A stretch of 64,000 nucleotides of DNA from the NCBI GenBank assembly GCA_022820545.1, contig JAJEFG010000108.1, positions 4,122 to 68,121 of the forward strand, given 5' to 3'. The stretch is from Acidobacteriota bacterium. GTDB lineage: Bacteria; Acidobacteriota; Vicinamibacteria; Marinacidobacterales; Marinacidobacteraceae. The notes under the pieces were generated by a model, which saw only the letters and a program-made list of their open reading frames with translations, ran no database searches and was not told the DNA's origin. The position numbers and the translations under genes are program-made. Shown piece by piece: positions 1,880 to 44,186 of the stretch (positions are counted from its first letter, which is position 1; every line of letters starts with the position of its first letter).

Positions 1880-3262
1880 ATGGAGCCTTCGGACGCTTTG
1901 CCGCCGCCTTCCGACCGGCTTCGCGCGGACCTCCTGTCGATTCACCGGGCGGCGCTCCGGGCGGCCGATCCGGAACGGATCCTGGAGCGGGACCTCCGGG
2001 GGGACGCGGCGTCCGGCTGGACCTTCCGGGGCCAGCCCCTGCTGCCTCCCCCGCGGACGGGGGGGGAACCGGTCTTCCTGTTCGGCGCCGGCAAGGCGGC
2101 CGCCGCGCTCGCCCGGGGGGTCCGGCGCGCGCTCGCCGGCGAGGCCGTGCGCGGGCGGATCATCGTGAAGCACGGTCACCGGCTCGAGGTACCCGGGGTG
2201 GTGGTCGAGGAGGCGGGACACCCGGTTCCGGACGCCCACTCGGTGGCGGCGACGAAGCGCCTGCTCGCCGACCTCCGGGAGGCCGGCGGGAGCGGCCGGG
2301 TCCTCGTGCTGCTGACCGGGGGGGCGTCGGCGCTGCTCGTCGCCCCGGCGGCGGGCATCACCCTGGAGGACAAGTCGCGGGTCAGTTCCCTGCTGCTCGC
2401 CTGCGGCGCCGACATCCACGAGATCAACACGGTCCGCAAGCACCTCTCCGCCGTCAAGGGCGGTGGCCTCATCCCCCTGCTGCCGCCGGGGCGGGCCGCG
2501 GCGCTCGTGATCTCCGACGTGATCGGCGACCAGTTGACCTCGATCGGTTCGGGGCCGGCCACGGGGGATCCCACCACGTTCGGCGACGCGCTGGGAGTGC
2601 TCGAGAAGTTCGCCCTGGTGGAGCGGGTTCCGGAAGGGGTGATCCGGCGCTTTCGCGACGGGGTCGCCGGGGCCGTCCCGGAGACGCCCGACGCGCCCGG
2701 CGAGGCGGTTCCCCACCACATCGTGGCCAGCAACTTCCATTCGCTCCGCGCGGCCGAAGCGGAAGCGTCCCGGCTCGGTTATCGCACCGAGGTCTTCGGC
2801 CGGGACCTCGGGGGCGAGGTTCACGAAACCGCCCGGCGGTTCGCGGGCCGGCTGGCCGTCCTTGGTTCGGACCCGGCGCCGGGTGCGCTCCTCGCGGGAG
2901 GAGAGCTGACCCTCCGGGTGACGGGCGACGGGCGCGGCGGACGCAGCCAGGAGTTCGCGCTGGTCGCGGCGGGACATCTGGAGGGGGTTTCCGGCGCCGC
3001 CCTGCTCGCCGCGGGGACCGACGGCACCGACGGCCCCACGGACGCGGCCGGGGCCTTCGCGGACGGAGCGTCCTGGAGCCGGGCGCGGCAGCGGGGCGTC
3101 GACCCGGACACGGCGCTCCGGAACAACGACTCCTGGTCCCTGTTCCGGGCCACGGGGGACCTGCTCGTCACCGGTCCCACCGGGACGAACGTCATGGACC
3201 TCATGGTGGGGCTGACCGCCGGGGGTGAGGTTTCCGGAAGCGGGGAGGGGAACGCGGACTAA
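1880..3262 (+). CDS. glycerate kinase (MOFRL/DUF4147 family, GckA/TtuD-like)
   Basis: Translation 'FLFGAGKAAAALARGV...VLVLLTGGASALL...IHEINTVRKHLSAVKGG...' is characteristic of the glycerate 2-kinase MOFRL family. Start taken at the internal ATG (MEPSDAL). Confidence 0.8.
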   Translation: MEPSDALPPPSDRLRADLLSIHRAALRAADPERILERDLRGDAASGWTFRGQPLLPPPRTGGEPVFLFGAGKAAAALARGVRRALAGEAVRGRIIVKHGHRLEVPGVVVEEAGHPVPDAHSVAATKRLLADLREAGGSGRVLVLLTGGASALLVAPAAGITLEDKSRVSSLLLACGADIHEINTVRKHLSAVKGGGLIPLLPPGRAAALVISDVIGDQLTSIGSGPATGDPTTFGDALGVLEKFALVERVPEGVIRRFRDGVAGAVPETPDAPGEAVPHHIVASNFHSLRAAEAEASRLGYRTEVFGRDLGGEVHETARRFAGRLAVLGSDPAPGALLAGGELTLRVTGDGRGGRSQEFALVAAGHLEGVSGAALLAAGTDGTDGPTDAAGAFADGASWSRARQRGVDPDTALRNNDSWSLFRATGDLLVTGPTGTNVMDLMVGLTAGGEVSGSGEGNAD

Positions 3263-35864: not shown

Positions 35865-37439
35865 CTAACGCCGCAGAGGCGGGGTGGTTGGCGGCGGATT
35901 CCGGTGGCCGGTCGCCTGCTCGTAAGCGAACGAGATGCGGAACAGCGCGCCCTCGCCGAGGGCGTTCCCGAGAAGTTGCAGGCCGCCCGGGAGCCCTGAC
36001 GGGGTAAAGCCCATGGGAACGGTGACCGCCGGAAACCCGGTGGGAGGGGAGAGCTGGGGCGAGTTGTTTCCGTCGGGCGTGGTCAGGTCGCCCAGGAGGC
36101 GCGGGGGGTTGCTCCAAGTGGGGAAGGCGAGCGCGTCGAGGTCCTGATCCTCGAACAGGCCCCCGACCTCGGCCCGGAGTTCCCCGGCGCGCCGGTTCGC
36201 TTCGGCGCAGACGTCCTCCGGCTCGCCCTCCACTTCAAGGGCGGTTTCGAGGCGCGGCCGGATCGACGGGTGGAAGTCGCCGCCCTCCACCAGCTCCTCG
36301 AGCGTCGTCACCGGAGCGTTCGGTCCGAGGCTTGCCAGGTAGGCCTCGAGCTGGGCGCGGAAGGGGTTGCACCACAGCGATCCCTCGGCTTCGAGCCCTT
36401 CGATCCGCACCGGATCCACGACGGTGACCCCCAGCCCCTCGAGGTCGGCGAGGGCCGCCTCGAAGAGCGCTCCGATGTCGGGGTCCGCGGTTTCGGTGTC
36501 GCTGAGTTGCCGGACGACGCCGATCCGGAAGCCGGTGAGCGGTCCCGCGTCGAGGTACCGGAGATAGTCGCCCTCGCGCTCGAACCCCTCCGTGGCGTCG
36601 TCGGCCGGGTCCGGCCCCGCCAGGACGTCGAAGACCCGCACGCCGTCTTCGACGGTGCGCGCCATCGGGCCGCCGATGTCCCGGAACAGGTTGAGCGGCA
36701 CGATCCCGTCCCGGCTCGTCAGGCCCATCGTCGACCGGATCCCGAAGAGGGCGTTGTGGGACGAAGGCCCGCGGATGGAGTTGCCGGTGTCCGTCCCGAG
36801 GCCGACGGCCCCGAAGCTCGCGGCCACGGCTGCCCCGGTGCCTCCCGAGGACCCGGCCGGCACCCGGTAGGGGTCGTAGGGGTTCCTGACGTGACCCGGA
36901 ATGACGGAGCCGAGGCTCTGATAGGCGCTGAAGGCGAACTCGGCCATGTGGGACTTGGCGAGCACGATGGCGCCCGCTTCGCGGATCCGCTGCACCTGGA
37001 AGGCGTCATCGGGCGGGATCGAGTCCGCGAGCGACGCCGACCCGGCGCTCGTGGGGAGGTCCGCGGTGTCGTAGTTGTCCTTCACGATCATCGGGACGCA
37101 CTCGAGCGGCCGGTCCGGGTCGAGCCCGGAACCCGCGAGACGCTCGTCGGCTTCCGCGGCCCGCTCCATCGCCTGCGGATTGACCGTGACGATCGCGTGG
37201 AGGGCCGGGCCCTCGCGGTCGTAGGCCTCGATCCGGGCCAGGTACGCCGCGACCAGTTCCGCGCAGGTGAAGTCGCCAGCCTGCAGGCCCTGATGGATCC
37301 CGGCGATATCGAGTTCCACCACGTCGAGCCCGCCCACCGCTTCCGGCGCCGGAGCGCCGCAGCCGGCCGCACCGCAGGCCGCGACCAGCGCCAGTGCGAT
37401 CCTGTTTCCTCTTCCGAGAGTCCCCGCTGTACCAGCCAT
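35865..37439 (-). CDS. amidase (amidase-signature family), lipoprotein/secreted, paralog of 22084..23703
   Basis: 'GVPMIVKDNYDTADLPTSAGS...' and 'GGSSGGTGAAVAASFGAVGLGTDTGNSIRGPS' AS signature; N-terminus 'MAGTAGTLGRGNRIALALVAACGAAGCG' (lipobox). Confidence 0.8.
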   Translation of the reverse strand: MAGTAGTLGRGNRIALALVAACGAAGCGAPAPEAVGGLDVVELDIAGIHQGLQAGDFTCAELVAAYLARIEAYDREGPALHAIVTVNPQAMERAAEADERLAGSGLDPDRPLECVPMIVKDNYDTADLPTSAGSASLADSIPPDDAFQVQRIREAGAIVLAKSHMAEFAFSAYQSLGSVIPGHVRNPYDPYRVPAGSSGGTGAAVAASFGAVGLGTDTGNSIRGPSSHNALFGIRSTMGLTSRDGIVPLNLFRDIGGPMARTVEDGVRVFDVLAGPDPADDATEGFEREGDYLRYLDAGPLTGFRIGVVRQLSDTETADPDIGALFEAALADLEGLGVTVVDPVRIEGLEAEGSLWCNPFRAQLEAYLASLGPNAPVTTLEELVEGGDFHPSIRPRLETALEVEGEPEDVCAEANRRAGELRAEVGGLFEDQDLDALAFPTWSNPPRLLGDLTTPDGNNSPQLSPPTGFPAVTVPMGFTPSGLPGGLQLLGNALGEGALFRISFAYEQATGHRNPPPTTPPLRR

Positions 37440-37581
37440 GACCCGATTCTATGCGTCCACTGCCCTCGGGCCCCGGGAGCCGGGCTCGGCAGCGAACGGC
37501 TGAGGAAGGCGCCGCCGGCGCCGCCTGGCCCCGGGATGGCGGATGCGGTTTGCCGGATTCCTTCGTTACAATCCCGCGCCC

Positions 37582-37686
37582 ATGACGCTCAGCGAGTCAG
37601 CCCGGTCGCACCATTCACGGCAATGGCTGTGGCGATGGCGATTTTGCATCAGGCCGGGCTCGTCTCGCGTCCGTTCGATCCACTGA
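37582..37686 (+). CDS. trpL: candidate trp operon leader peptide (34 aa) with three Trp codons
   Basis: ATG (37582) to TGA (37684-37686): MTLSESARSHHSRQWLWRWRFCIRPGSSRVRSIH. TGG codons at about 37624, 37630 and 37636 (W-L-W-R-W). Located 138 nt upstream of trpD. A -10-like TACAAT sits 10 nt upstream of the ATG (possible leaderless start); no SD. Confidence 0.5.
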   Translation: MTLSESARSHHSRQWLWRWRFCIRPGSSRVRSIH

Positions 37687-37823
37687 TTGCGGCGGGAGGC
37701 GGCCCGACCCGGGACGCCTCCGGACGACGGCGCGAGAGGGTGCTTCAGGGCGCCCGCCAAGGCTTCGAGGTTCCCGGTTCGGGACGCGCTGACCGTCACC
37801 CACCCCACCAAGGAGCCACCCCC
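37687..37823 (+). promoter_or_regulatory. candidate attenuator region between the leader peptide and trpD (alternative GC hairpins)
   Basis: Segments ggcgggaggcg / cgcctccgg / ggcgcccgcc can pair 1:2 (GGAGGCG...CGCCUCC) or 1:3 (GGCGGG...CCCGCC). No U-tract follows, as is common in high-GC attenuators. SD AAGGAG at 37810 precedes the trpD GTG. Confidence 0.35.
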
Positions 37824-38855
37824 GTGATCGCCCCCCTCCTCGAAACCCTGCTCTCCGGCGAGGCCGCCGATTCCGGCGCGCTGGAGACCGCTCTCCACCG
37901 GATCCTGGCCGGCGAGAGTGACGTCGCCCAGACGGCGGGACTGCTCGTCGCCCTCAGGATCAACGAGCCCGATGCCGCGACGCTGGCCGCGTGCGCCCGC
38001 GCGCTCCGGGGTCACCGGAAGGCCGTCATGTCGCAGGTGCGGCCGCTGGTGGACACCTGCGGAACCGGCGGCGACAAGAGCGGCACGTTCAACATCTCCA
38101 CGGCTTCGGCGCTGGTGGTCGCGGCCGCCGGCGGCGCGGTGGCCAAGCACGGCAACCGCAGCGTCTCGTCCATCACCGGCAGCGCCGACGTCCTGGAAGC
38201 CTGCGGCGCGCCGCTCCACCTCGAGCCCGCTCAGGCTTCCCGGATCCTGGACTCCACGGGCTTCGTGTTCCTGTTCGCTCCCGCCTTCCACCCCGCCATG
38301 GCCCACGTCGGGCCGGCGCGCCGCGCGCTCGGGATCCGCACCCTCTTCAACGTCCTCGGCCCGCTCGCGAACCCGGCGCTCGCCGACCGTCAGTTGATCG
38401 GTGTCTACGATCCGTCCCTGACGGAGACCGTCGCGGGGGCACTCGCCGAGCTCGGGTCCGCCTCGGCGCTCGTGGTGCACTGCGAGGGGCTGGACGAGAT
38501 CGGCCTTCACGCCACGACCCGGGGCCACGCCCTGAACGACGGGAAGGTGAGTCCGGTCGAGATCCGGGCCTCCGAACTGGGACTCCGCGAAGCCTCGATC
38601 GAGGAGTTGCGCGGCGGCGCCACCTCCCAGAACGCGGAGATCCTGCGCGCCGTGCTCTCCGGGGAGGACGACGGCCCGAAGCGGGACGTGGTCGCCGCGA
38701 ACGCGGGCGCCGCGCTCACCGTGGCCGGCCTCGAGCCGGACCTGCAGGCCGGCGTGAAGACCGCGTTGGAGACACTCGCGTCGGGCCGCGCGCTGCGCAC
38801 CCTGGAACGCTACGTGGAGACCAGCATGCGGATGACCGGAATGAATGTGGCGTGA
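37824..38855 (+). CDS. trpD: anthranilate phosphoribosyltransferase
   Basis: '...LVDTCGTGGDKSGTFNISTASALVVAAAGGAVAKHGNRSVSS..GSADVLEA...' canonical TrpD. GTG start after AAGGAG; the track ORF (36270) is an upstream artifact. Confidence 0.9.
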   Translation: MIAPLLETLLSGEAADSGALETALHRILAGESDVAQTAGLLVALRINEPDAATLAACARALRGHRKAVMSQVRPLVDTCGTGGDKSGTFNISTASALVVAAAGGAVAKHGNRSVSSITGSADVLEACGAPLHLEPAQASRILDSTGFVFLFAPAFHPAMAHVGPARRALGIRTLFNVLGPLANPALADRQLIGVYDPSLTETVAGALAELGSASALVVHCEGLDEIGLHATTRGHALNDGKVSPVEIRASELGLREASIEELRGGATSQNAEILRAVLSGEDDGPKRDVVAANAGAALTVAGLEPDLQAGVKTALETLASGRALRTLERYVETSMRMTGMNVA

Positions 38856-39628
38856 CCGAACGGGTACTCGAGCGGCTCGTGCGAGCCGCCGAGGCGAGAG
38901 CGGAGCGGCTCGCGGCGGAACCGGACCCCGGGCCTCCTGACCGGGAGCCTCCTTCCTTCCGGGAGGCGGTCGGCGGGCGGGGCGCGCTGTCGGTGATCGC
39001 CGAGTTCAAGCGGAAGAGTCCGAGCGCCGGGGCGATCCGCGACGACCATCCCGGCGCCCGGGCGCTGGCCTACCGGGAGGCCGGCGCCTCCGCCGTCTCC
39101 GTGCTGACCGACCCGGATGCCTTCGGGGGGTCCCTCGCGGACCTGCACGCGGCTTCGGCGGCCTCCGGCCTCCCCATCCTGATGAAGGACTTCGTCGTCG
39201 ATTCGGCGCAGATCCGGGCGGGCCGGGCGGCGGGAGCGTCCGCCGTGCTGCTGATCGTCCGCTGCCTGGACGACGCCAGGCTGCGCCGTCTCCATCGGGA
39301 GGCGCGCTCGCTGGGGCTCGACACGCTGGTCGAAGTGCACGACGCGCCGGAACTCGATCGCGCCCTGGCGCTCGAGGACGCCATCGTGGGGATCAACAAC
39401 CGGGACCTGGACACACTGCGGACGGATCGCGGCCGCGCCCGCGACCTCCTCCCCCGGGTTCCGCCCGGACGGATCGCGGTCGCCGAGAGCGGGTATCTCG
39501 AGCCGGAGCACCTGGCGGAGTTGCGGGGGCGGGCGGACGCGGTGCTCATCGGGACGGCGTTGATGCGCGCGGCCGATCCCTCGGCATTCCTCCGGGCCGC
39601 AACCGAACCGGTGCCGGCCGGCGTCTGA
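38852..39628 (+). CDS. trpC: indole-3-glycerol phosphate synthase
   Basis: 'ALSVIAEFKRKSPSAGAI.....A..Y...GASAVSVLTD...F.GS..DL.......LPILMKDFVVD..Q...' typical IGPS. GTG overlapping the trpD stop (GTGA). Confidence 0.85.
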   Translation: MTERVLERLVRAAEARAERLAAEPDPGPPDREPPSFREAVGGRGALSVIAEFKRKSPSAGAIRDDHPGARALAYREAGASAVSVLTDPDAFGGSLADLHAASAASGLPILMKDFVVDSAQIRAGRAAGASAVLLIVRCLDDARLRRLHREARSLGLDTLVEVHDAPELDRALALEDAIVGINNRDLDTLRTDRGRARDLLPRVPPGRIAVAESGYLEPEHLAELRGRADAVLIGTALMRAADPSAFLRAATEPVPAGV

Positions 39629-39640
39629 CCGGCGCGTGTC

Positions 39641-40264
39641 GTGGAGATCAAGATCTGCGGCCTCCGGAGGCCGGAGGACGCCCGTCTGGCCGTGCGGCTC
39701 GGGGCGCAGTGGATCGGCGTGGTCCGGGCTCCGGACTCCCCGCGCTCGGCAACGCTCGAAGAAGCCCGGCAGGTGATCGCGGCCGCCCGGGAAGTCAATC
39801 CGGAGGTCCTTCCCGTGCTCGCGACCGGGAGGCGCACCCGCGACGAGGTCGCGTCGGACGCGTTCGCGCTGGGGGTGGAGCGGGTCCAGCCCCACGGTCT
39901 TTCCGAGGCCGGGATCCGGACGCTGACACAGGCCGGCCTCATCGTGCACCGGGTCGTGACCGTGCCCGAATCCGCGGCCCGGCTTCCGGACTTCGAGCCC
40001 CCCGAGGCGGACGACGGGCCGCTCGTGTTCGACGTGGGAGGGGGCGGCAGCGGCCGCGCCTTCGACTGGCGCATCCTCGGGGAGCGCGCGCCGGGACGGG
40101 CGTTCATCGCGGGAGGCCTGCGGCCGGAGAACGTCGGGCGGCTGCTCCCCTACCGGCCCTGGGGCGTGGACGTCTCGAGCGGGATCGAGTCGTCGCCCGG
40201 CGTCAAGGATCCGGAGCGGCTGCAGCGGTTCTTCGATCTGGTGCGGCCGCTGGCCGTGTCATGA
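39641..40264 (+). CDS. trpF: phosphoribosylanthranilate isomerase
   Basis: 'MEIKICGLRRPEDARLAVRLGAQWIGVV...' and C-terminal 'FIAGGLRPENVGRLL..RPWGVDVSSGIE' typical PRAI. Confidence 0.85.
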   Translation: MEIKICGLRRPEDARLAVRLGAQWIGVVRAPDSPRSATLEEARQVIAAAREVNPEVLPVLATGRRTRDEVASDAFALGVERVQPHGLSEAGIRTLTQAGLIVHRVVTVPESAARLPDFEPPEADDGPLVFDVGGGGSGRAFDWRILGERAPGRAFIAGGLRPENVGRLLPYRPWGVDVSSGIESSPGVKDPERLQRFFDLVRPLAVS

Positions 40265-41457
40265 AGGCGTCACTCCGTCCTCGCCTGGGCGCGTTCGGCT
40301 CCTTCGGGGGGCGTTTCGCTCCGGAACTCCTCACCCCCGCGCTCGAGGAACTGGAGACGGCCCGGCGGGAGATCGTCCCCACGCCGGCGTTCCGGGACGA
40401 ACTGGACCGCGAGGCGCGCGCCTGGGTGGGGCGGCCGACTCCGCTCACCAGAGCTCCCCGGTTCTCGGATCGGGCCGGCCTCGAAACCGTCTTCAAGCGG
40501 GAGGACCTGCTCCACGGCGGAGCGCACAAGGCCAACAACGTCCTGGGGCAGGCGCTCCTGGCCCGGCACATGGGCAAGACCCGGCTGATCGCGGAGACCG
40601 GCGCCGGACAGCACGGGACCGCGACCGCGATGATCGCCGCCCGTTTCGGAATGCAGGCGGTGATCTACATGGGGGAGAAGGACATGGAGCGCCAGGCCCC
40701 CAACGTGAAGCGGATGGAGCTCTGCGGCGCCGAGGTCATCCCCGTGACGGCGGGCGCCCGGACGCTCAAGGACGCGATCAACGAGGCGCTCCGCGACTGG
40801 ACGGCGAGCCTGTCCACCACCCACTACCTGCTCGGGACGGCCGCCGGACCCCACCCCTTTCCGCGGCTGGTGCGGGACTTCCAGGCGGTCATCGGCCGCG
40901 AGGCGAAGCGGCAGTGGCGGCGGGAGTTCGGAGGACTGCCCGACGTGGTGGTGGCCTGCGTCGGCGGCGGCAGCAACGCGATCGGCATCTTTCACGCCTT
41001 CGTGCCCGACAAGTCGGTGCGGCTCGTGGGCGTCGAGCCCGGCGGAGCGGGACTCGACAGCGGCCGTCACGGGGCCACCCTGGTTCGCGGGACGCCCGGC
41101 CTGCTCCACGGGGCCCGGACGATGATCCTGCAGGACGACGAAGGGCAGATCCTCGAGCCGCACAGCATCTCCGCCGGACTCGACTATCCCGGCGTCGGCC
41201 CCGAGCACGCGCACCTTCAGGAGACCGGCCGGGCCCGCTACGTCGCCGCCACCGACGAGGAAGCGCTGGCGGCCTTCGAGGTGCTGTCGGCCACCGAGGG
41301 GATCGTCCCCGCCTTCGAGCCCTCGCACGCGCTCGCGTTCGTCCTGCGCGCCCGGGAGTCGGGAGAGCTCGCCGCCGGGGCGCGGGTGCTCCTGAACCTC
41401 TGTGGCCGGGGCGACAAGGATCTGGAGACCTATTTCGCGCTGGGCCGGTCCTCATGA
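40261..41457 (+). CDS. trpB: tryptophan synthase beta chain
   Basis: 'FGSFGGRFAPELL...FKREDLLHGGAHKANNVLGQALLA..MGKTRLIAETGAGQHGTATA...' canonical TrpB PLP motifs. ATG overlaps the trpF stop. Confidence 0.9.
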   Translation: MKASLRPRLGAFGSFGGRFAPELLTPALEELETARREIVPTPAFRDELDREARAWVGRPTPLTRAPRFSDRAGLETVFKREDLLHGGAHKANNVLGQALLARHMGKTRLIAETGAGQHGTATAMIAARFGMQAVIYMGEKDMERQAPNVKRMELCGAEVIPVTAGARTLKDAINEALRDWTASLSTTHYLLGTAAGPHPFPRLVRDFQAVIGREAKRQWRREFGGLPDVVVACVGGGSNAIGIFHAFVPDKSVRLVGVEPGGAGLDSGRHGATLVRGTPGLLHGARTMILQDDEGQILEPHSISAGLDYPGVGPEHAHLQETGRARYVAATDEEALAAFEVLSATEGIVPAFEPSHALAFVLRARESGELAAGARVLLNLCGRGDKDLETYFALGRSS

Positions 41458-42251
41458 GCCTGGCCGCGCTCCGCACCTCGATGGAGCAGGGACCGGCGGT
41501 TTCGCCCTTCCTGATGCTCGGCGATCCGACTCCGGACCTCAGCGTGGAGTTGGCCCGGACGGCCGTCGCGGCGGGCGCCGGGATGCTCGAGATCGGTCTT
41601 CCGTACAGCGATCCGGCGGCCGACGGGCCGGCCATCCAGGCGGCCACCGGGCGCGCCCTCGCCGCGGGGACGTCCACCCGGCGCGGGTTCCGGCTCCTGG
41701 CGAGGATCGCGGAGGCCTGTCCCGGCATCCCGCTCAACCTGTTGGTGTACGGCAATCTCGTGCACCGGATCGGATACGAACGGTTCACGGATACCGTGAG
41801 CCAGGCGGGGGCTTCCACCCTGCTCGTGCCGGACATCCCGCTCGAGGAGGCGCTCCCGTTGCGCCGGGCCTGCCGGGGCGCCGGCCTCGGCCACGTGGAG
41901 CTTGCCGGGCCTCTCACTCCGGCGCCGCGCCTCGCGCGTCTCGCGCAGGGTTCCGCTTTCCTCTACCTCGCGGGGTTTCAGGGGGTGACGGGCGTCCGTC
42001 ACGGTGGGTTCGCCGCGGTCCTGGGCCGCGTCACCGAAGTGGCGGAATCCGTGGACGTTCCCGTCTGTCTCGGGTTCGGGATCTCCAGCCGCGACCAGAT
42101 CGTCCGCGCCTTCGGGGCCGGCGCGCGGATCGCGGTCGTCGGCAGCCATCTGGCGCGGGTGGTGGGGACCCTCTACGGCGCTCCGGCGGACGCGGAGCGC
42201 CTCGTCGCCGGTTACCGTTCCGCCGTGCTCGCGCTCGCCTCGAACGGGTAG
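41454..42251 (+). CDS. trpA: tryptophan synthase alpha chain
   Basis: '...FLMLGDPTPDLSVELARTAVAAGAGMLEIGLPYSDPAADGPAIQ...' canonical TrpA. ATG overlaps the trpB TGA. Confidence 0.9.
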   Translation: MSLAALRTSMEQGPAVSPFLMLGDPTPDLSVELARTAVAAGAGMLEIGLPYSDPAADGPAIQAATGRALAAGTSTRRGFRLLARIAEACPGIPLNLLVYGNLVHRIGYERFTDTVSQAGASTLLVPDIPLEEALPLRRACRGAGLGHVELAGPLTPAPRLARLAQGSAFLYLAGFQGVTGVRHGGFAAVLGRVTEVAESVDVPVCLGFGISSRDQIVRAFGAGARIAVVGSHLARVVGTLYGAPADAERLVAGYRSAVLALASNG

Positions 42252-42271: not shown

Positions 42272-43276
42272 ATGCTGGTCATCATGCAGACGGCCCCTAC
42301 CGAGGAGCAGTGCGCCCGTGTCGAGACCGCGATCCGGGACATGGGTTTCACGCCGCTCCGGGTGCCGGGCGCCGACCGGACCGCGATCTGCGTCACCGGG
42401 AACCGGGGGCCGGTGGACCCCTCGTTCCTGATCCGGCTCCCCGGGGTCGCCCGCTGCATTCCCGTCACCAAGCCGTTCAAGCTGGTCAGCCGCGAGGTCC
42501 ACCCGGCGGACACCGTGGTGGAGATCGGCGGTGTGCCGGTGGGCGGACCCGACCCGGTGGTGATCGCCGGACCGTGCAGCGTCGAGACCGAGGCGCGGAC
42601 GGTCGAGATCGCGCGCGCCCTCCGTACGGCGAACGCCGACCTGTTCCGCGCGCGACTGGGGTCGGAGAGTGTCGGGCCGTACCAGTTCGCAGGGGTCGGC
42701 GAGGAGGGCCTCCATACCCTGGAGCGGGTGCGCGAGGAGACCGGGATCCCGGTGATTACGGAGATCGCGGACCCGCGTACCGCCGAGCGCGTGGCCGAGC
42801 GCGTCGATGCCGTCGAGATCGCCGGTCGTCACATGGAGAACGAGCCGCTTCTCGAGATCGCCGCCGGCATCGCGGTGCCCATCATTCTGGAACGAGCGCC
42901 GTCCGCAACCGTGGACGAGTGGCTGATGGCGGCGGAATCCCTTCTCGCCCGCGAGAAGCGGGATGTGGTCCTCTGCGAGCGCGGCATCCGGACCGGCGGC
43001 GAGCGGCGTACCCTGCTCGATCTCCACGGGGTCCCGGTGGTCCGGCGGATGTCCCATTTGCCAGTGCTGGTGGACCCTTCGCACGCGGTTGCGGAGCGGG
43101 ATCGTGTGCGCCCACTGGCTCGCGCCGCGCTCAGCGCCGGCGCCTCCGGCATCGCGATCGCGGTGCACACCCACCCGGACACCGCCTACACCGACCCGCG
43201 GCAGACCGTGGACATCCCGACCTTCGAGGGCATCCAGCGCGACCTCGTCCGGATCGGCGCGTTGGAGGCGATATAA
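42272..43276 (+). CDS. 3-deoxy-7-phosphoheptulonate (DAHP) synthase, AroA(G)/KDO8PS-like class I-beta type with N-terminal ACT/ferredoxin-like regulatory domain
   Basis: N-terminal 'MLVIMQTAPTEEQCARVETAIRDMGFTPLRVPGADRTAICVTGNR' regulatory domain, then 'VIAGPCSVE...' catalytic barrel typical of Thermotoga/Bacillus-type DAHP synthase. Last gene of the trp cluster. Confidence 0.85.
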   Translation: MLVIMQTAPTEEQCARVETAIRDMGFTPLRVPGADRTAICVTGNRGPVDPSFLIRLPGVARCIPVTKPFKLVSREVHPADTVVEIGGVPVGGPDPVVIAGPCSVETEARTVEIARALRTANADLFRARLGSESVGPYQFAGVGEEGLHTLERVREETGIPVITEIADPRTAERVAERVDAVEIAGRHMENEPLLEIAAGIAVPIILERAPSATVDEWLMAAESLLAREKRDVVLCERGIRTGGERRTLLDLHGVPVVRRMSHLPVLVDPSHAVAERDRVRPLARAALSAGASGIAIAVHTHPDTAYTDPRQTVDIPTFEGIQRDLVRIGALEAI

Positions 43277-43295: not shown

Positions 43296-44186
43296 ATGAC
43301 CGAGCCATCCCCTCCGCCGACGCCCGACGCGGGCGACGTCTCGTTCGCGCGGACCCTGCTGCAGTTCTTCGTGATCCCCATGCTGGTGGTGATCCTCGGG
43401 GTGGGGATCTTCCTCGGGTTCGCGTGGCTCGTCTCCGACGACACGACCGCCGGGGAACAGCTCCAGCGGATCCGTTCCGGGGGACACCGCGAAGCGCGGC
43501 AGGCGGCGTTCGAACTCGCGAACCGCATCCAGCACGGCGATCCCGCGGAATTCCGCGCGCTCGGGCCCGACCTGGTGCGGGCCTTCGAAGACGCGGCGCC
43601 GCCGGCCGATCCGTGGGTGCGCCAGTACCTCGCCCTCGCCCTCGGAACCCTGTCCGAAGCGACGGCGGTTCCGGTGCTCGCCGGGGCGCTCGCCGATCCG
43701 GACGAGACGGTGCGGGTCTACGCGGCCTGGGCGCTTGGCTCCATCGGGGGCGGCGCCGCGGTTTCCGCGCTCGGCGAAGCCAGCCGGGCCGAGGACGCGG
43801 GACTCCGCACCATGGCGGTCTACGGGCTCGGGGCGATCGGCGATCCCGCGGGCGCCGAGGCGCTCCGGCGGGCGGTCGACGACCCCGTGCTGGACGTTTC
43901 CGTGAACGCGGTGGTGGCGCTCGCCCGCATCGGTGACGCGGCGGCCGCCGAACGGCTGCTCGGCATGATGGAGCCGGACTACTGGGCGAACGTGCCGGGC
44001 ATGCTGGACGGCGAGCGGACGCTCGCCCGGCTGAGCGCCGTGCAGGCGGCGGGCGTGCTCGAGACCCCGGTGGTCCGGGCCCGGCTCGAGGAGGTGGCGG
44101 CGAACGATCCGGATCTCAAGGTCCGGGAGGCCGCGCTCTCGGCGCTCGCGGGCGGAGGGACGGCGAGGCAGCCGGCGCCTCCGTGA
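43296..44186 (+). CDS. HEAT-repeat (PBS-lyase-like) protein with N-terminal TM anchor, hypothetical
   Basis: N-terminal hydrophobic 'LLQFFVIPMLVVILGVGIFLGFAWL', then repeated 'xVRxxAAxALGxIGxxxAVxxL' HEAT-like units. Confidence 0.6.
   Translation: MTEPSPPPTPDAGDVSFARTLLQFFVIPMLVVILGVGIFLGFAWLVSDDTTAGEQLQRIRSGGHREARQAAFELANRIQHGDPAEFRALGPDLVRAFEDAAPPADPWVRQYLALALGTLSEATAVPVLAGALADPDETVRVYAAWALGSIGGGAAVSALGEASRAEDAGLRTMAVYGLGAIGDPAGAEALRRAVDDPVLDVSVNAVVALARIGDAAAAERLLGMMEPDYWANVPGMLDGERTLARLSAVQAAGVLETPVVRARLEEVAANDPDLKVREAALSALAGGGTARQPAPP

Follow-up and report, generated by a model that had tools for sequence, protein, structure and literature searches.

The 64,000-nucleotide stretch of DNA analysed here (the window) has a G+C content of 70% and comes, as judged by its closest relatives, from a Vicinamibacteria (Acidobacteriota) genome of the marine and sponge-associated Ca. 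Marinacidobacterium type. In front of its trpD-C-F-B-A genes lies a leader which is probably a trp attenuator: a trpL-type peptide gene combined with alternative RNA helices, orthologous to the ribosome-mediated attenuators of sister clades and working as an earlier reading made from the sequence alone (the sequence-only reading) had proposed. Trp leader-peptide attenuation is a textbook mechanism that has been established mainly in Proteobacteria and Actinobacteria. On the comparisons below, the leader of the window appears to be a solid, annotatable trpL-type leader of this known mechanism in a new phylum, in a derived form.

Relatives were collected by a TrpD-based scan with one genome per species and by a metagenome scan, which gave 64 loci in four groups. 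Clade a consists of 16 sequences with 90-99% TrpD identity (L001-L012, L018, L020, L038 and L043), and clade b of 10 loci with 73-86% TrpD identity (L013-L017, L019, L021, L030, L031 and L039). Clade c, with 66-70% TrpD identity, comprises soil and sediment Acidobacteriota (L024, L027, L029, L035, L046-L048, L050-L052 and L058), and in the remaining loci, the fourth group, trpG directly precedes trpD. The elements of the window to which the argument refers are as follows.

37567..37572, forward strand: -10-like promoter element TACAAT, of which T1, A2, A5 and T6 are invariant in the 16 clade-a sequences.
37582..37686, forward strand: trpL-like leader open reading frame (ORF) of 34 codons plus TGA with no Shine-Dalgarno (SD) sequence, identified by translation and kept in relatives.
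37599..37605, forward strand: segment 1 (AGCCCGG), the partner of segment 2 in the ViennaRNA fold of 37595-37665.
37624..37638, forward strand: putative regulatory codons TGG CTG TGG CGA TGG, with W17 and W19 invariant in clade a and W15 variable.
37654..37666, forward strand: segment 2 (CCGGGCTCGTCTC), within the leader ORF, predicted by ViennaRNA folding as the partner of segment 1 or segment 3 and aligning with CGGGCTGCC.
37695..37721, forward strand: segments 3 and 4, the hairpin GGAGGCG-G-CCCG-ACC-CGGG-A-CGCCTCC with no U-tract after it, the ortholog of the sister-clade terminator stem.
37738..37755, forward strand: second conserved hairpin of the spacer, GGGTGCT-TCA(G)-GGCGCCC, 99.1% paired in clade a.
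37787..37823, forward strand: C-rich, G-poor tract, recognised by its C minus G composition, which contains the SD of trpD (AAGGAG, 37810-15).

The leader ORF runs on the operon strand from the ATG at 37582 to the TGA at 37684-86, and its product is MTLSESARSHHSRQWLWRWRFCIRPGSSRVRSIH. Its Trp codons occupy 37624-26, 37630-32 and 37636-38 (W15, W17 and W19), and translation thus bears out the 34-codon ORF with three Trp within five residues that the sequence-only reading had described. The leader does lie upstream of trpD as stated there, with a spacer of 137 nt, not 138, between its stop codon and the GTG of trpD (37824). Among the 127,996 six-frame codons of the window there are 12 places with three or more Trp within five residues, and the chance expectation is about 0.036 for the three plus-strand frames of the 386-nt intergenic region. 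By itself the clustering is suggestive and short of decisive; it becomes decisive only when combined with conservation. The leader core, by which we mean the region from the Trp codons to just past the 3:4 hairpin, occurs a single time in the window, and so it is not a repeat element.

The conservation of the small ORF, one of the checks that the sequence-only reading had named, was upheld by the relatives. All 26 clade-a and clade-b genomes with an intergenic region before trpD have a small ORF with at least one Trp codon and an invariant Arg-Trp-Arg core, and the start and stop codons are retained in every one of them. In all 26 the ORF comes after a conserved TAnAAT box and lacks an SD. Within clade a the 34-codon frame is free of frameshifts in 16 of 16 sequences and WRWRF is invariant, while amino-acid positions outside it mostly vary non-synonymously. 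As to the three Trp codons proposed as the sensor, W17 and W19 hold throughout clade a, but the first is dispensable there (at W15, L007 has Arg, and L008 and L009 have Leu) and some relatives have one Trp codon only. The clade-b ORFs have 23-41 codons, follow a TAGAAT or TACAAT box, and carry 1-2 Trp codons in the R-W-R core. Across both clades the Arg codons flanking the TGG vary at the third base only (CGA/CGT/CGC on one side and CGA/CGT/CGG/CGC on the other), and there is no change in the TGG or in the first two bases of the flanking codons. This is the pattern expected of translated codons, and the leader ORF is probably translated in the lineage of the window. The leaders of L007 and L043 have lost the first Trp (TGG to CGG) and have a new one at codon 27 (RPGWSR), so that they still contain three Trp codons.

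When the window is compared with L012, the leader is 0.88 and the leader core 0.96 identical, whereas the value for the whole of trpD is 0.81 and that for its fourfold-degenerate sites 0.47. The same trend is seen across clade a, where the leader core is 0.93-0.99 identical and the fourfold-degenerate trpD sites are 0.47-0.86 identical, and where the 150 nt upstream of the -10 box reach just 0.59-0.85 identity to the window. Very high nucleotide conservation extends over about 115 nt of the leader. These values show strong purifying selection on the leader within clade a.

Homology to attenuators of the classical kind can be followed in a MAFFT alignment of representatives of all clades (alignment A2). 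It lines up the -10 box, the ATG, one invariant TGG, segment 2 (CGGGCT), a CTGA motif, GAGGC of segment 3 and GCCTC of segment 4; the single TGG that is invariant in all three clades corresponds to the third Trp codon of the window, 37636-38. Clade c has a textbook attenuator before trpD. Its promoter, read by eye, is TTGACG-17-TATAAA, and its leader peptide is MFDRARSAASRQWWWCV up to the stop codon in most members, with GWW, WW or stop-terminated DRFWWWCG variants elsewhere. Helix 1:2 is formed there by GCCCGTTCAG with CTGAACGGGC, helix 2:3 by CGGGCTGCC with GGCAGCCCG, and the terminator by GAGGCAGCCCG and GGGTTGCCTC, after which TTTTT follows. From this alignment, the leader of the window appears to be orthologous to the classical ribosome-mediated attenuators of its sister clades.

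Another member of the family was found on the contig of L026 (Ca. Marinacidobacterales). This locus, L067, has a divergent amidase gene, which it shares with the window, and then a complete trpE-G-D-C-F-B-A-DAHP synthase operon (DAHP, 3-deoxy-D-arabino-heptulosonate 7-phosphate). Upstream of its trpE (3019-3164) lie TTGACG-17-TATAAC (again by eye), a stop-terminated leader MRTSDLRSVIATHWWWWR with four tandem Trp codons (...HWWWWR and stop), a hairpin and TTTTTT. Since this leader precedes the whole trpEGDCFBA-DAHP synthase operon, the leader family would belong to the operon as a whole, and the leader would stand before trpD in the lineage of the window because trpEG is no longer in the operon. 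A hairpin with a U-tract is present in L052, L067 and L019.

On alignment A2, 94% of the cells of the 3:4 hairpin are paired compared with 49-57% for slid partners. Three pairs have changed on both sides (G-C to A-U or the reverse), the outer and the seventh pair switching with G-U intermediates, and the covariation score was attained by only 2 of 500 shuffles. The pairing and the two-sided changes together indicate that 37695-37721 is the ortholog of the sister-clade terminator stem. The second hairpin, at 37738-37755, has three pairs that vary on one side (U-G/C-G/U-A) and a variable loop in clade a, and it was not found in clade c. The sequence-only reading had proposed a different pair of mutually exclusive hairpins in the spacer, ggaggcg:cgcctcc (37695-701 with 37715-21) and ggcggg:cccgcc (37691-96 with 37753-58). 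Both can be found in the sequence; one is nested within the other, however, with just 2 nt in common, so that this particular switch does not hold.

The pairs that do compete are 1:2 (37599-605 with 37654-660), 2:3 (37655-666 with 37696-706) and 3:4 (37695-706 with 37710-721). According to ViennaRNA, 37595-37665 folds into 1:2, whose upper part holds the Trp codons (-30.8 kcal/mol), 37650-37712 into 2:3 with the leader stop codon in the apical loop (-35.2 kcal/mol), and 37688-37728 into 3:4 (-24.6 kcal/mol). The outcome depends on how much RNA is offered: 37650-37728 is predicted to fold as 2:3 (-39.7 kcal/mol), and the complete 37582-37728 as 1:2 plus 3:4 (-70.4 kcal/mol). In a post hoc switch test, the 5' part was removed as far as 15 nt beyond the third Trp codon and the remainder was refolded; the 11-pair 3' hairpin was fully lost and 10 bases of its 5' arm were re-paired upstream, a behaviour matched by 5 of 1000 dinucleotide shuffles. 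The classical switching logic of 1:2, 2:3 and 3:4 is thus retained in the predicted folding of the window.

We propose that the leader would act in the following way. Transcription would start a few bases after TACAAT, probably between this box and the ATG, and the 34-codon ORF would be translated without an SD from a transcript having at most a few untranslated 5' bases. When charged tRNA-Trp is scarce, the ribosome would stall at codons 15-19 (W-L-W-R-W), and its footprint, reaching about 12-15 nt past the stalled codon, would end short of segment 2 (37654-666), whose first base lies 18 nt beyond that of the third Trp codon (W19), just outside a stalled ribosome. The bulk of the ribosome would keep segments 1 and 2 from pairing, segment 2 would pair with the emerging segment 3, the 3:4 hairpin (37695-721) would not form, and RNA polymerase would proceed into trpD-C-F-B-A and the DAHP synthase gene. 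With ample Trp, the ribosome would pass segment 2 and arrive at the stop codon (37684-86) during transcription of segments 3 and 4; with segment 2 covered, 2:3 would be blocked, 3:4 would form and expression of the operon would fall. The ORF and its Trp codons, the purifying selection, the homology, the conservation and covariation of 3:4 and the thermodynamic switch are shown by the results above; the output step, above all, is one that we infer for the lineage of the window.

Several results weigh against this account. The fold energy of the whole leader is no better than that of dinucleotide shuffles (z = -0.2 and -0.7), and a sequence of 70% G+C offers many alternative pairings by chance. 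When the stalled state is folded with 75 nt more of downstream RNA, 3:4 is kept inside a longer stem and is predicted in both states, and so the decision would have to be co-transcriptional. The leader ORF stops 8 nt before the 3:4 hairpin (37695), so near that a ribosome at the stop codon would extend over the base of the hairpin, which is not the case in E. coli. The leaders of several relatives contain just one Trp codon, from which a less sensitive sensor would be expected. Compensatory changes, which the sequence-only reading had also looked to, exist for 3:4 but not for the other helices: in clade a, 1:2 is 92% paired with no covariation, and 2:3 is 98.9% paired with C-G/U-G variation at one pair and no double-sided change. 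RNAalifold returned 0 compensatory pairs for clade a, where the region is about 93% identical, and pair counts on alignment A1 gave no double-sided changes for 1:2, 2:3 or the 37738-37755 hairpin. We account for the missing covariation of 1:2 and 2:3 in clade a by the region being too conserved. Rfam gave no gathering-score match in the whole window, the T-box included, and at E <= 10 the region 37380-37900 gave no leader family, with STnc450, mir-3017 and Guanidine-III at the chance level of 12-18 bits. Finally, there is no U-tract after the 3:4 hairpin in the window, where GGACGACGG stands instead, and a terminator scan of the leader was negative. The defining output device of classical attenuation is missing in the window.

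In clade b, automated folding of the leaders in stalled, full and stop states was too noisy to give a common architecture. The clade-b locus L014 (2740-2900) has a copy of the canonical segment 2, CGGGCTGCCTCC, upstream and not downstream of its single Trp codon. This copy is complementary to segment 3 over 12 bp, and in L014 a stalled ribosome would act by another logic than the simple one, or by its reverse.

The question of the output can be approached through the distribution of the U-tract. Clade a and most of clade b have lost it; the leader of L019 (clade b) still has a hairpin followed by CTTTTCCTGT, and L017 has no such hairpin. In 60 kb of the window, 15 terminator-like sites with a hairpin and a U-tract were found against about 21.7 expected from shuffles. 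Such sites are not enriched, and so the organism may not rely on canonical terminators. The lineage of the window may stop transcription by hairpin-dependent termination by its own polymerase, or by Rho acting on the C-rich tract. For the lineage-specific Trp leader and attenuator of the sequence-only reading, this means that the sensor is supported by relatives and homology, whereas the output, which has no U-tract terminator, is just inferred.

The C-rich tract is an outlier by composition. The value of C minus G is +15 at 37784-37823 (99.9th percentile), and the 40-nt stretch from 37799 (37799-37838), at the start of trpD, ties for the strongest patch of C over G in the 64 kb on both strands. 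In the last 50 nt before trpD the mean of C minus G is +9.4 in clade a, +12.4 in clade b and -4.6 in clade c and L067. Clades a and b, which for the most part lack a U-tract, have the C-rich tract, and clade c and L067, which have a U-tract, do not. A possible though rather doubtful explanation is that the Trp-codon sensor remained the same and its output switched from intrinsic to Rho-dependent termination, the C-rich tract being rut-like and the leader ribosome setting the RNA state that decides an early stop in trpD. The coincidence of U-tract loss with C-richness in clades a and b, as against the clades that keep TTTTT, favours this explanation, as do the rank of the 37799-37838 patch and the precedents among leader-peptide attenuators such as tnaC, mgtL and speF (PMC12360218). 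On the other hand, the predicted exposure of the tract is alike in the two leader states (unpaired probability 0.59 and 0.62), the tract includes the SD and could merely keep the ribosome-binding site open, and L019 is C-rich and yet has a hairpin followed by CTTTTCCTGT.

We tentatively consider a broader evolutionary version, to which we would give about three parts in ten of our belief, in which the same leader converted its output device within one class: from the intrinsic terminator of the deep-branching relatives to a hairpin without a U-tract plus a newly acquired C-rich tract, Rho-dependent or otherwise non-canonical, in the high-G+C marine lineage, while the ORF was lengthened through segment 2 and the Trp run was thinned to W-x-W-x-W or to a single R-W-R. 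If so, the class would offer a natural evolutionary series of attenuation being rewired where genome composition makes U-tracts untenable.

Translational attenuation of the kind described for mycobacterial leaderless small ORFs (sORFs) is a much less probable rival, in which the codon tract or another segment would mask the ribosome-binding site of trpD when no ribosome is stalled. A high-G+C organism provides a precedent in which the sORF is leaderless and a terminator is lacking (bioRxiv 10.1101/834739), and RNAalifold pairs the start of the ORF (AUGACGCUCA) with UGACCGUCA at 37790-98, near the SD. However, the SD is predicted to be about equally accessible in every modelled state (unpaired probabilities of 0.35, 0.47 and 0.33), the Trp-codon tract forms no better a duplex with the ribosome-binding region than shuffled sequences do (35 of 300), and the long-range helix loses one pair in L012 without compensation. 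Masking of the SD by the Trp-codon tract was rejected on the similar SD accessibility and the shuffle-level duplex.

The leader could instead be a decayed relic, an ancestral attenuator that has lost its terminator and no longer regulates anything. The loss of the U-tract and the drift of the Trp codon number across clades, from 3-4 down to 1-3, agree with such decay. A relic would decay at the neutral rate, however, and this leader is more conserved than the coding sequence of trpD itself, with ORF length, frame and WRW invariant in clade a, which makes this explanation very improbable. Least credible of all is an untranslated structured RNA (a riboswitch, a protein-binding leader or a small RNA) with an incidental ORF, to which the conservation over about 115 nt, the non-synonymous variation at most positions outside WRWRF and the lack of an SD would be congenial, but which is opposed by the coding signature of third-base-only Arg variation around an invariant TGG, by the start and stop codons kept in 26 of 26 genomes, by the homology to leaders with WWW or WWWW runs, and by the lack of any Rfam match, T-box included. 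A T-box leader sensing tRNA-Trp was rejected for want of an Rfam match, and no TRAP-type (G/U)AG repeats were seen by eye.

The sequence-only reading had also pointed out TACAAT before the ATG and the lack of an SD. Both are seen, but the box ends 9 nt, not 10, before the leader ATG of the window. A TAnAAT box is found 8-10 nt before the ATG in 16 of 16 clade-a sequences, none of which has an SD, and beyond it, further upstream, these sequences diverge. A strict sigma-70 promoter scan of the leader region found no promoter. A second in-frame ATG at 37543, upstream of the TACAAT box, is missing from most relatives. The clade-a sequences upstream of the -10 box (37540-37581 in the window and the equivalents elsewhere; columns 1-24 of A1) are of two unrelated types: the first has TTGCCGG just 11 nt before TACAAT (window, L001, L004, L005, L008-L011), and the second has the extended -10-like TGnTAnAAT (L003, L006, L018, L038). 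Neither type has a consensus -35 element at 16-18 nt. Consensus sigma-70 promoters are nearly absent from positions 1-60000 of the window, and the genome seems to make no use of promoter and terminator signals of the E. coli type.

In the trp leader of E. coli, Trp stands next to Arg (WWR), and arginine starvation partly relieves attenuation. The E. coli and Salmonella trpL (RF00513) and the leader of the window have in common a short ORF before trp genes, clustered Trp codons followed by Arg, and overlapping helices 1:2, 2:3 and 3:4 that are, or in the window would be, chosen by ribosome position; the sister-clade versions, unlike the window, also share the hairpin and U-tract terminator. When compared to E. 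coli trpL, the leader of the window has no RF00513 match, lacks an SD and starts 8-10 nt after the -10 box. Its ORF of 34 codons runs through segment 2, ends 8 nt before 3:4 and is followed by no U-tract, and it precedes trpD in an operon without trpEG that ends with a DAHP synthase gene. The trpL of Corynebacterium glutamicum and the trpE leader of Streptomyces (PMC1262725) resemble it in high G+C, a Trp-rich peptide and alternative helices. These actinobacterial leaders belong to another phylum and have predicted or demonstrated terminators, and the likeness is one of features, with no sequence relationship established. In Sinorhizobium meliloti, rnTrpL/peTrpL (PMC6614838, PMC7298713) is a ribosome-dependent attenuator with a WWW peptide, whose RNA and peptide also have trans functions. 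There, as would seem to hold for the lineage of the window, the trp genes are split over several transcription units of which a single one has the leader, but the S. meliloti leader precedes trpE(G) and that of the window precedes trpD. The mycobacterial leaderless polycysteine sORFs (bioRxiv 10.1101/834739) share the high G+C, the lack of an intrinsic terminator and, if transcription starts as proposed, the leaderless-type start; they differ in sensing Cys and in that the codon tract masks the downstream SD. With tnaC, mgtL and the speF leader orf34 (PMC12360218), a Rho output may be shared if the C-rich tract is a rut site, which is suggested here by base composition alone, although these leaders sense free Trp, Pro or Arg by a logic other than that of the window.

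No description of a trp leader in Acidobacteriota was found in the searchable literature, and a 2016 survey of short leader genes names the phylum just statistically (PMC4833913). The leader of the window appears to share with trp attenuators the position, the Trp codons, the conservation and, in predicted folds, the alternative helices, and it departs from them in having no U-tract and no Rfam model. The range of trp attenuation would thereby be extended by the class Vicinamibacteria, including the marine and sponge-associated Ca. Marinacidobacterium, and trpL would be a recognisable small gene for annotators which gene callers have missed. In its derived form the leader lacks a U-tract, has a C-rich tract and a longer ORF, and starts without an SD, which makes it a tractable case for asking how attenuators work in very G+C-rich bacteria that seemingly do not use canonical intrinsic terminators.

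The operon behind the leader has the gene order trpD-C-F-B-A with GTGA and ATGA overlaps and then a DAHP synthase gene, as the sequence-only reading had given it; Pfam and the gene junctions confirm this.

37824..38855, forward strand: trpD, anthranilate phosphoribosyltransferase (Pfam PF00591, PF02885), with the start codon GTG and the SD AAGGAG at 37810-15.
38852..39628, forward strand: trpC, indole-3-glycerol phosphate synthase (PF00218), in GTGA overlap with trpD.
39641..40264, forward strand: trpF, phosphoribosylanthranilate (PRA) isomerase (PF00697), 12 nt after trpC.
40261..41457, forward strand: trpB (PF00291), in ATGA overlap with trpF.
41454..42251, forward strand: trpA (PF00290), in ATGA overlap with trpB.
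42272..43276, forward strand: DAHP synthase with a type I-beta family domain and an N-terminal ferredoxin-like domain (PF18152, PF00793).

A divergent amidase gene (35865-37439) lies upstream of the unit. As the sequence-only reading had noted, trpE and trpG are not in this cluster, and a tblastn search of the window found neither gene when ORFs from the upstream regions in which relatives carry trpE/trpG were used as queries. Of the 120 top-ranking homologues of TrpE from L067, 0 lay on the trpD-first contigs of clades a, b and c, which included those of L004, L005, L008-L013, L019 and L024; absence of TrpE from these clades is not proven thereby. The DAHP synthase gene is the last biosynthetic gene of the unit and starts 20 nt after trpA. 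In L065 (clade c), L066 (clade b) and L067, too, it comes immediately after trpA; this adjacency is a conserved trait of the class and no local accident. The DAHP synthase with the ferredoxin-like domain would then be a regular member of the attenuated unit, which would tie entry into the aromatic pathway to Trp supply.

A gene for a HEAT-repeat protein (43296-44186) starts 19 nt after the DAHP synthase gene in the window. In L066 (9032-17035) the DAHP synthase and HEAT genes overlap and are followed on the same strand by Rieske, cytochrome b, cytochrome c and cytochrome oxidase genes; up to about 46900, this order is matched in the window for at least the HEAT and cytochrome b genes. These respiratory-chain genes may be co-transcribed with the trp unit or lie immediately behind it.

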